This document shows positions 1 through 3,000 of a stretch of DNA of 50,384 bases, in pieces. Within the stretch, counting starts at the first letter, position 1; the number at the start of each line of letters is the position of its first letter. Made by a program: the position numbers. Location: the IMG/VR virus record IMGVR_UViG_2880412407_000006. One strand, written 5' to 3'. The DNA is from a virus. Its lineage: Duplodnaviria; Heunggongvirae; Uroviricota; Caudoviricetes.

Positions 1-3000
1 CTACGATAACCGCGCATTCAACATGGCTATCTGTTCGTCGTTCATGTCATCAATCCACATACCGTAAATTTCATACACCATCTGCGCAGTTTCATGCCCC
101 ATTTGGCTGGCTATAAATGCCGGGTTCGCTCCTGCCGTCAACAGCCAGCAGGCAAAAGTATGCCGCGTATGGTACGGATTACGACGGCGAATACCAGCAC
201 GTTTTACTGCTGCATTCCACCTTGCCCCCAAACTGCTTACCGAGTAATAAGGTTTTTGTTTTCCGTTACACACCCTGGGCATGAAAACAAAATGCAGTTT
301 TTGCTTTTCGGTTCTGCCGTACTCCCGATGGTAAAAGGTGATTTCGCTTTTGCGATGATGCCCGGTCAGTTTGTATTGCTCCTTCAGTGCTTCAAGAGCA
401 GGCTGCAGTAGTGTTACTGTCCGGATCCCGGCATTTGTTTTTGGGGGACCGAACATATCAAGTATCGTCAGGTTTCTTCTGACATTCACTATTCCCTTTT
501 CGAGATCCACATCCTCCCACGCCAGAGCTGCCAGTTCCCCGTGACGAAGTCCTGAGTAAACGGCAAATTTCCACAAGTTCTGGCTCTGTCCTTTTTCACT
601 TTCCATTAATGCATTGAATTCTGTTTTAGATAACGGATCAGGCTTTATTCTGTTTCGCTGTAATTTTTTTACTCCTTCAAATGGTTTGGTTGATATAAAT
701 CCCGACTGATACGCAAAACGCAACAGCGAACAGAGCAGGGCGATATAGTTATCAACTGTGCGCACGGTTCTTCCTTTTTTGTTGGATCTTGGATTATCCA
801 GGTAAAGCGTTTCTCCATGCAGCAGTTCATTCCGGTAGTTTAAGATATCGCTATAACGAATATGTGATATCGGGGTACTTTCACAAATTATTATTCTGAG
901 TGTTTTTAATTGTGATTTTGTTTTCTTCATTGTGTTTGTTGTTAACTCTGTCTCTTTAATTTTTGTCCAGATATCACAAAGCTCTCCGAACGTTTTTATG
1001 ACTCTCGTTGTCACCATTTTTGCCCCAGTGCTGGACTGGGGAAAACGTCTTAAATACTCAAATTCACCGGAGTTTATTTCATGAACTATCAGCGCTCTTA
1101 AATTTCCGGCCTTTTTAATATTACTGTTTGTAATCTCCCAGCCTTTTAATGTTTCCCGACATCGTTTTCCTCGAAACATGAACCAGATGCGAATGTATCT
1201 GAACCGCCCCGGGTTTCCTGGAGAGTGTTTTATCTGTGAACTCAGGCTGCCAGATCATTGTTTCCGATGGAAGCATAATAAGCTTTTTCTGCTTCTGCCG
1301 GAGGAGTATGGCCCAGCCTTCCCAGCAATCGTCGATTGTTATACCAGTCCACCCACGTTAGTGTGGCCAGTTCCACTTCTGCACGGTTTTTCCAGCGCTT
1401 ACGGTGTATTACCTCCGCTTTGTAAAGGCCATTGATGCTCTCCGCCATCGCGTTGTCATACGAGTCACCAGTACTCCCTGTTGATGCCAGTAAGCCGGCT
1501 TCCTTAAGCCGCTGCGTGTAGGCCAGCGATACATACTGAGAACCTTTATCACTGTGGTGGATTGTGCCGGACGGCCGACGGGCCCACAACGCCTGCTCCA
1601 GTGCATCCAGCACGAATGCCGTTTCCATGGATGATGAGACCCGCCATCCCACGATGTATCCGGCGAACACATCAATGATGAACGCCACATAAACGAAGCC
1701 CTGCCATGTGCTTACCCAGGTAAAATCAGCCACCCACAACTGGTCTGGACGTTCTGCCACGAACTGACGGTTTACGCGGTCGCCTGCGGCAACGGCTTTC
1801 CGGCTGACGGTAGTGCGGACCTTTTTACCCCGGAGAACACCGGTAAGTCCCATAACTGCCATGAGACGTGCCACAGTGCATCTGGCCACTCTGATACCTT
1901 CCCGTAACAACTGACGCCAGACTTTACGCACACCGTATACCTGGTGATTTTCATCGTATACGCGCTGTATCTCTCTCTTCAGCCAGTCATCGTGCTGCGC
2001 ACGGGCACTGCGTTTATCCGGATGATGTCGCTGTTGCTGACAATGGTAATACGTTGACGGGGCAATATGCAGTTCGCTGCATACCGGTCCGACCCCGTAC
2101 TGCTCACGCAGCTTATCCAGCAGTGGCATCATTTTTTCCAGAGGCGGTCGAACTCCGCCTTCGCAAAATAAGCGGAAGCCTGGCGAAGGATATCGTTACT
2201 GCGGCGCAGTTCACGATTTTCACGTTCCAGCTCTTTCAGACGCTGACGTTCAGCGCTGGTGAGCCCACCATCACCGCCCCCGGTATCCCGCTCATGCTGG
2301 CGAACCCAGACACGCAGAGTCTCCGGCGTACAGCCAATCTTTGGGGCAATGGAACAAATTGCCGCCCACTGTGAGTCATATTCATCCTGACTTTCCAGAA
2401 CCATACGAATCGCCCGCTGACGGACTTCGGGGGAAAAACGAGTATTTTTAGTCATCCTGTTTACCTCTTTCTCAGGGAGTTTAGTCTCCAGGATTTCCGG
2501 GGCGGTTCAATCTACCTCTAATCTCGACACCTGTTGGTAATTTAGACATATCATGAGTCTTTGATAAACTGATTTATCTTTGGATAGTTGTACCAGATAA
2601 TCCCTCGTTTGCTGTCTGGCTTACCTAAAGGAGATACTCGTTTGAAGTGGAAGCCCTCCACCCAACAGTTCTGGCGGTATGCTTCAATTTGTCTGGCCCC
2701 CAGACCAGTGCGAAGCATCAGGCCGTATTCAACCATCCACTCTTCATTAAAGATTACTTGTGCCATCGCATCACCTCTGGCAGGCGCCAATGTTAGACTG
2801 AAATTGACGCCCGATGTTGATTATTAATAATCAGCTATGAAGTTTTAATTTGAATACAATGCAATTCTCGAGGACTGAAGTTTCTCGCAATTAAAATTTA
2901 TCAGTTTTACTTTCTGCTCTCTGGAAACGCCTGCTTCTTTTTTACCTGAGAGCATTTTTTCGCATTCTGATTTCGTTAGTTTAGATTTTGAATATCTTGT

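Follow-up and report, generated by a model that had tools for sequence, protein, structure and literature searches.

At the left end of the window, by which we mean the whole 50,384-nt stretch of DNA that was analysed, an insertion sequence separates two fragments of a gene that we read as the tyrosine integrase gene intR. The excisionase gene xisR (ydaQ), intact, lies directly upstream of the shorter of the two fragments, and its stop codon is spaced from the start codon of that fragment by one nucleotide (TGAtATG). The transposase genes of the insertion sequence have the same orientation as xisR and intR. Table 1 lists the features of the locus, together with insertions found near the same place in other strains.

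Table 1. Features of the xisR–intR locus. Positions are those of the window, except in the last three rows, which give insertions at the corresponding locus of other strains.
Feature	Position	Strand	Basis or source
Complete IS629 (IS3 family, IS629/IS1203 group), 1310 bp	1200..2509	-	Terminal inverted repeats, length, identity to other copies
IRL, left terminal inverted repeat, upstream of orfA	2485..2509		25 nt, 88% complementary to 1200-1224
IRR, right terminal inverted repeat, downstream of orfB, adjoining the int 3' fragment	1200..1224		End-to-end comparison
Target-site duplication ATC, int 3'-fragment side	1197..1199		Single ATC at the empty site of 2014C-3599
Target-site duplication ATC, int 5'-fragment side (int nt 38-40, minus strand)	2510..2512		Empty-site comparison
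orfA, 108 aa, helix-turn-helix N-terminal part of the transposase	2129..2455	-	Pfam HTH_Tnp_1, E = 2.4e-12
orfB, 296 aa, -1 frame, DDE (rve) catalytic part	1242..2132	-	Pfam rve 1.4e-26, plus HTH_21 and rve_3
Frameshift signal, A6 slippery run plus ALIL pseudoknot	2058..2174	-	Rfam RF01497; A6 run at 2137-2132 (TGG AAA AAA TGA)
intR 5' fragment, start codon 2549-2547 plus codons 1-13	2513..2549	-	Translation, PGAP annotation, P5-E9 conservation
intR 3' fragment, codons 14-411 plus stop at 1-3	1..1196	-	Phage_integrase 205-391; 100% identical to locus L006
xisR (ydaQ) excisionase, 71 aa, intact, stop 2553-2551	2551..2766	-	Pfam DUF1233 6.2e-21; annotated xisR in identical loci
IS1, 9-bp duplication (other strain)	int nt 30-38		Locus L004
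IS1 boundary (other strains)	int nt 24		Loci L017, L019
IS2 (other strain)	Just inside xisR 3' end		Locus L015

The element is a complete IS3-family insertion sequence, functional in appearance. Its 1310-bp length falls within the ~1.2-1.55 kb typical of the family, and its terminal inverted repeats are imperfect (25 nt, with 22 of 25 positions matched) and end in 5'-TG...CA-3' (TGAACCG...CGGTTCA). The helix-turn-helix orfA (frame 0) and the DDE orfB (frame -1) overlap at the A-rich slippery sequence TGG AAA AAA TGA TG, where a -1 shift would yield an OrfAB protein of 404 aa, the same length as in the copies of this IS for which PGAP notes a "programmed frameshift". The frameshift-stimulating RNA structure found 3' of the slippery site in this family is also present: the ALIL pseudoknot model (Rfam RF01497) matches over its full length (1-117) with a score of 121.5 bits, compared with a gathering score of 50. 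Finally, the 3-bp direct duplication of the target, ATC, lies within the 3-5 bp range of the family and was checked against an empty site, as described below.

Over all 1310 bp the element is 100% identical to a copy in a prophage of the O121:H19 strain 2014C-3599 (locus L009, 34682-35991), and the same identity holds for copies on O121:H19 plasmids and in Stx2a phages. Other 1310-bp copies are 96-98% identical, and a 1310-bp copy in O111:H- strain 11128, which PGAP assigns to the IS1203 family, is 96.4% identical. Full-length IS629 measures 1310 bp (PMC3064760), makes target duplications of 3-4 bp and prefers prophage locations, which hold 62% of the O157 copies (PMC3271280); ISfinder-based typing has been reported to find both IS629 and IS1203 in O121:H19 (PMC9397093). 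From the length and the identity to the O121:H19 copies, the name IS629 (IS629/IS1203 group) is well supported, with the reservation that the formal isoform rule asks for 95% or more nucleotide identity with the IS629 reference of ISfinder, whereas the comparison here is with other copies. In itself the element shows no difference from the IS629/IS1203 elements of Shigella and STEC, sharing their length, ends, orfA/orfB organization, -1 frameshift and 3-bp duplication. The only difference from copies elsewhere is the insertion site at intR nt 38-40, which was unseen in the other collections that we searched.

Deleting positions 1200-2509 and one ATC from the window restores an exact match (2687/2687 bp) to E. 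coli 2014C-3599 (NZ_CP027435.1), in which the empty site carries a single ATC and both intR (WP_000040852.1, 411 aa) and xisR are annotated as intact. Because the empty site has one ATC only, the repeat is a true target-site duplication and the boundaries of the element are settled; a chance 3-mer was considered and rejected on this comparison. Because removal of the IS plus one ATC restores the exact match, we read the event as a clean, simple transposition. Beyond the insertion, window positions 2513-22000 are 100% identical to the Rac-like prophage adjoining ttcA in several complete O121:H19 genomes, and in those prophages too intR and xisR are intact. The first-pass annotation had described a 1310-bp IS3-family element with imperfect terminal inverted repeats that arrived by simple transposition, with its ATC duplication intact and no rearrangement at the site, and had suggested comparison with related prophages free of the insertion; the domains of OrfA and OrfB, the A6 site, the ALIL structure, the located repeats and the uninterrupted xisR-intR unit of 2014C-3599 bear all of this out. 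It was also right that the IS parts int from xisR, in the sense that the bulk of int is cut off from xisR and whatever precedes it. In all likelihood a full-length, apparently active IS629, moving by the copy-out/paste-in route of IS3-family elements, entered the 5' end of intR and duplicated 3 bp (ATC). The gene that received it encodes the tyrosine integrase of a lambdoid, Rac-like prophage, and the host is an STEC strain of O121:H19 type.

The exact position of the IS relative to int depends on where int begins. The first-pass annotation took the ATG at 1177-1179 as the start codon, which would put the IS 20 bp upstream of it, between int and xis. When the IS is removed, the frame runs 19 codons upstream of that ATG, to the ATG at 2549-2547, and the repaired ORF of 411 aa is identical to the annotated IntR, WP_000040852.1; the ATG at 1177-1179, with 20 bp between it and the end of the IS, is Met20 of this protein and opens a residual ORF of 392 aa, the longest that remains. 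Repaired IntR matches the entire Pfam Arm-DNA-bind_2 profile (1-65) at residues 5-69, and it also contains a SAM-like domain and the Phage_integrase domain (205-391). In 16 homologues from other Enterobacterales, which share 52-74% identity, measure 407-428 aa and align from their first residues onwards, P5, T6, G7, V8, E9 and F19 are invariant, and the position of Met20 is occupied by T, L, I or N in 7 of the 16. An alignment of 30 sequences gave the same picture of conservation at the IntR N-terminus. A PDB sequence search returned no solved homologue spanning the arm-binding domain, and an AF2 model of IntR (mean pLDDT 86.9) was used instead: it predicts a three-stranded sheet (residues 8-11, 14-21 and 24-29) followed by a helix (37-56), a topology that we take to be that of the lambda Int N-domain. 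The model can be aligned with structures of full-length lambda Int across ~400 columns. Curated annotation gives intR as 411 aa at every intact locus inspected.

Based on the Pfam match, the conservation among homologues, the model and the annotation, rather than on N-terminal protein sequencing, we place the true start of int at 2549-2547. With this assignment the IS is inside the int coding sequence, splitting codons 13/14 within the Arm-DNA-bind_2 domain, and the earlier placement in a gap between xis and int has to be given up: the presumed start is codon 20, and the xis-int gap is a single nucleotide.

Several consequences for the integrase follow from the reading frames. Translation from the native int start now continues into IRL and ends there, giving a peptide of 22 aa. 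The ORF that opens at Met20 keeps complete core-binding and catalytic domains and is no longer stop-start coupled to xisR; according to the model, its product would have an arm-binding sheet without the strand that carries the invariant PTGVE (strand 1) and with hardly any of strand 2. As the window stands, no single ORF combines the arm-binding, core-binding and catalytic domains of a lambda-type integrase. By analogy with lambda Int, in which att recombination depends on the arm-binding domain, an intR split at codons 13/14 inside this domain is most likely a null allele with respect to attL x attR excision as well as integration. The predicted effect of the insertion is thus an intragenic knock-out, as opposed to mere uncoupling of int from a promoter.

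The prophage around this gene turned out to be composite. Up to ~36 kb, the window shows 15 differences from the ttcA (Rac-like) prophage of 2014C-3599; from 38 kb on, it shows more than 200 differences per 2 kb from that prophage. Positions 34313-50384 are 99.98% identical (3 differences, opposite strand) to another prophage of the same strain, at ydfJ, and on the right the window finishes within the host ydfJ gene (49101-50384). The ydfJ prophage is lambdoid and lies ~235 kb from the Rac-like prophage in 2014C-3599, in inverted orientation. By these comparisons the window is a recombinant in which the Rac-like prophage at ttcA is joined to the ydfJ prophage. It is most simply read as the product of a chromosomal inversion that arose when tail genes common to both prophages recombined homologously. 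The same ttcA..ydfJ linkage is found in the complete genome 2014C-4423, with an intact intR plus an IS3-flanked deletion.

This arrangement bears directly on excision. In 2014C-3599, an 18-bp sequence, TTGTTCAGGTTGTATTGT, occurs at both ends of the Rac-like prophage, once at the ttcA junction and once at the right end. This Rac att core is absent from the 50,384 nt of the window (attL itself lies outside it), and, in place of the cognate attL and attR in direct orientation on which the integrase would act, the right end is a ydfJ junction. Because the window is chimeric and has no Rac attR, excision is probably impossible anyway, and IntR would probably be unable to excise this prophage even if it were repaired. 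Most likely the gene that the IS struck no longer had any use, and it may by then have been free of selection; at the least, the insertion is not the sole block to excision. The earlier proposal that the IS "locks the prophage" therefore survives as a plausible outcome of the insertion, but it is incomplete for a chimeric window without the Rac att core. Taking everything together, we regard it as highly probable that IS629 transposed into the 5' end of intR, leaving an int that is most likely null in a chimeric prophage without the Rac attR.

Other explanations have to be weighed against this one. The IS-excision enhancer, IEE, acts on IS629, which it removes, and in O121:H19 it repairs a lacZ interrupted by IS600 through precise excision (PMC9397093, PMC9943667), and most lineage-1 strains keep an intact iee (PMC9397093). 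In an iee-positive O121:H19 host, IEE might likewise excise IS629 precisely in a subpopulation, so that intR would be restored and the mobility of the prophage would toggle; the IS, intact and flanked by a perfect 3-bp duplication, is a substrate for simple excision. The lacZ case is similar in that it concerns the same serotype and an intragenic IS3-family element whose target duplication is intact (PMC9397093), but reversion there was demonstrated under lactose selection, whereas no selection for reversion is evident at the intR of the window. Moreover, a restored IntR would still face a chimera without a cognate attR in excision orientation, and reversion would be a by-product of known IEE activity rather than a dedicated switch. 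We therefore consider such a reversible switch unlikely.

A further variant of this idea draws on the distribution of insertions at the locus. Among 5,426 complete E. coli genomes, 1,843 have the xisR-intR junction, and in 1,827 of those, K-12 included, nothing interrupts it. The same insertion occurs in none of the 5,426 genomes; only six places match 80% or more of the query, and in all six the IS sits at other Rac positions. The exact IS629-intR junction, CAGATGCGAATGTATC joined to TGAACCGCC, was not found in the GenBank phage collection, and a 35-mer scan for the junction in IMG/VR, the GTDB representative genomes and JGI metagenomes gave no other occurrence. Independent IS hits do occur within ~55 bp of the int start in other strains (Table 1). 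IS629 could be pictured as a reversible lock on a prophage carrying nleC, and the clustering of IS1, IS2 and IS629 within about 55 bp of the int start as the mark of recurrent selection for silencing. Precise excision by IEE would, in an iee-positive O121:H19 host, give back the 411-aa integrase in rare cells, so that the population would regain mobility or rearrangement of the prophage. This seems to us quite improbable. The insertion is an ordinary, strain-specific event.

We find it very hard to credit that int is intact with its start at 1179 and that an intergenic IS does nothing more than uncouple it from a promoter or impose IS control. The ATG at 1177-1179 does open a 392-aa ORF, and Prodigal-type calls in public assemblies often pick Met20 even at intact loci; an exact look-up of the 392-aa ORF retrieved the Met20 form at many intact loci and the IS629 junction at 0 of the 10 places shown. 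However, the 19 upstream codons, in frame once the IS is removed, carry PTGVE and F19, complete the Pfam arm-binding profile and form strands 1 and 2 of the model, whereas Met20 is unconserved and the curated length is 411 aa. In addition, the 20 bp preceding Met20 contain no Shine-Dalgarno sequence, and a consensus-match scan, which makes for a weak negative, predicted no outward-facing promoter-like site at the int-proximal end of the IS. Without a predicted promoter or a Shine-Dalgarno sequence, and with the arm-binding strands lost, the suggestion in the first-pass annotation that int may have come under IS-derived control finds no footing.

A related scenario, equally hard to sustain, has transposase read-through produce a truncated Int (residues 20-411) that acts in a new role, as an arm-independent recombinase or a topoisomerase. 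Int and the transposase share an orientation, a consensus scan predicted no minus-strand terminator between the orfB stop (1242) and Met20 (1179), and the core-binding and catalytic domains are whole; some low-level truncated Int might still arise from read-through transcripts. On the other side, the promoters of IS3-family transposases are weak, the ORF has no ribosome-binding site, and lambda Int without its arm domain is incapable of att recombination. There is also no sign of selection for such a product, and the allele is absent from all collections searched.

Least credible of all is an artefact in which the IS or the chimeric prophage is a misassembly of multi-copy repeats: O121:H19 genomes contain many copies of IS629 and of lambdoid tail genes, with 17-25 matching places in each genome, a classic source of misassembly, and faulty assembly of the source genome might in principle account for the chimera, but both IS junctions are clean, with a perfect 3-bp duplication of a single-copy target of the kind that misjoins do not produce, and the ttcA..ydfJ linkage is also present in the complete genome 2014C-4423.

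Knock-out of intR by IS629 in a chimeric prophage, the reading that we favour, can be placed among known systems. In K-12, IntR and XisR drive excision of the Rac prophage (PMC4632033). Once the IS is removed, 400 bp over the xisR-intR junction are 100% identical between K-12 Rac and the window, and the two share gene order, the 1-nt stop-start spacing and integration beside ttcA; they differ in that K-12 IntR is intact and supports excision, whereas the window allele is split at codons 13/14. The intact Rac-like prophage Sp10 of O157 Sakai, at the ttcA site, is excisable and transferable (PMC2669165); its int is intact, whereas the window has a broken equivalent in a prophage that is, besides, a chimera of the ttcA and ydfJ prophages. 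There is also a likeness to Sp3, Sp11 and Sp12 of O157 Sakai, defective EHEC prophages with an IS-disrupted integrase (PMC2669165): as with those, a lambdoid prophage of STEC has its int inactivated, is predicted to be non-excisable and has effector cargo (nleC here) fixed in the chromosome.

The categories involved, namely IS629 activity in STEC prophages (PMC3271280), integrase disruption and inter-prophage recombination, are already known, and no new mechanism emerges. The locus illustrates how a plausible ATG next to a clean IS boundary can mislead both a reading from sequence alone and Prodigal-type callers about the start of a gene, and it provides one strain-specific IS629 site that is a possible typing marker within O121:H19. 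More generally, the knock-out of an integrase by a common jumping gene of STEC is an ordinary route of prophage decay, and this prophage would be a further example of how STEC prophages with type III effectors, here nleC, lose their mobility and stay in the chromosome as a result of IS hits combined with inter-prophage recombination.

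By sequence comparison, the window is a chimera of two prophages: its left ~36 kb match the ttcA (Rac-like) prophage of O121:H19, and its right 16 kb are a 99.98% match to a separate prophage at ydfJ in the O121:H19 strain 2014C-3599, where that prophage is inverted and lies ~235 kb from the ttcA prophage. This composition, together with the inverted ydfJ match, implies a large inversion between the prophages, which would have occurred via tail genes common to both. The same ttcA–ydfJ linkage was found in a second complete genome, 2014C-4423. The type III effector gene nleC is located at the right end of the prophage. 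In the ttcA prophage of 2014C-3599, IS600 lies directly downstream of nleC; it is missing from the window, consistent with derivation of the window's right end from the ydfJ prophage. That ydfJ prophage, in what is the closest complete genome (NZ_CP027435.1), also carries a 100% identical copy of IS629, flanked by a TerB-family gene and a tRNA-Arg, which is a candidate donor of the insertion in intR.

Features and their coordinates (window positions unless a locus from another strain is named)
Feature	Position	Strand	Remarks
RalR/RalA region	2845-3241		adjoins IS629/intR
RalA sRNA	2870-3048	plus	Rfam, 225 bits; overlaps rcbA
ralR	3047-3241	minus	
sok-like RNA	15103-15273		Rfam
IS3	15239-16496		1258 bp; 3-bp AGC duplication
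hokD ORF	from 16535		
Small-RNA cluster	19506-19704, 20479-20538, 20625-20880		isrK; C4 antisense RNA and its a1/b1 targets; a tRNA; STnc100; AgvB
AgvB (anti-GcvB)	within small-RNA cluster	minus	
Right segment matching ydfJ prophage	34313-50384		
ttcA/ydfJ prophage crossover	about 36-38 kb		
nleC entry	47370-48356 and 48359-48707		
Host ydfJ	49101-50384		
IS629 copy in 2014C-3599	L009 34682-35991		
Met20-start intR gene call	4001-5179 in each of L010-L019		
Other-strain IS insertions	L004 3308-4077; L015 2636-3929; L017/L019 about 3951-3967		equivalent to window 2513-2565

An IS3 element is inserted ~36 bp ahead of the start codon of hokD and cuts off the Rfam-detected sok/leader region from the gene, so this type I toxin locus is probably inactivated. 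Complete O121:H19 genomes carry the same insertion, and in 2014C-4423 a ~27 kb deletion begins exactly at the right end of this IS3. The type I toxin-antitoxin pair of Rac, RalR/RalA, adjoins the IS629/intR region, and both of its genes look intact. The window also holds a small-RNA cluster of the kind typical of EHEC lambdoid phages.

Automatic gene callers commonly begin intR at Met20 (392 aa) in public assemblies, even at intact loci, leaving out 19 conserved codons; the first-pass annotation, which placed the int start at 1177-1179, made the same error. Around the true start, from -14 to +40, independent IS1, IS2 and IS629 insertions cluster in different E. coli strains, with the xisR-intR junction disrupted in only 16 of 1,843 genomes. 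Either a small insertion hot spot or repeated selection to silence int could account for this cluster.
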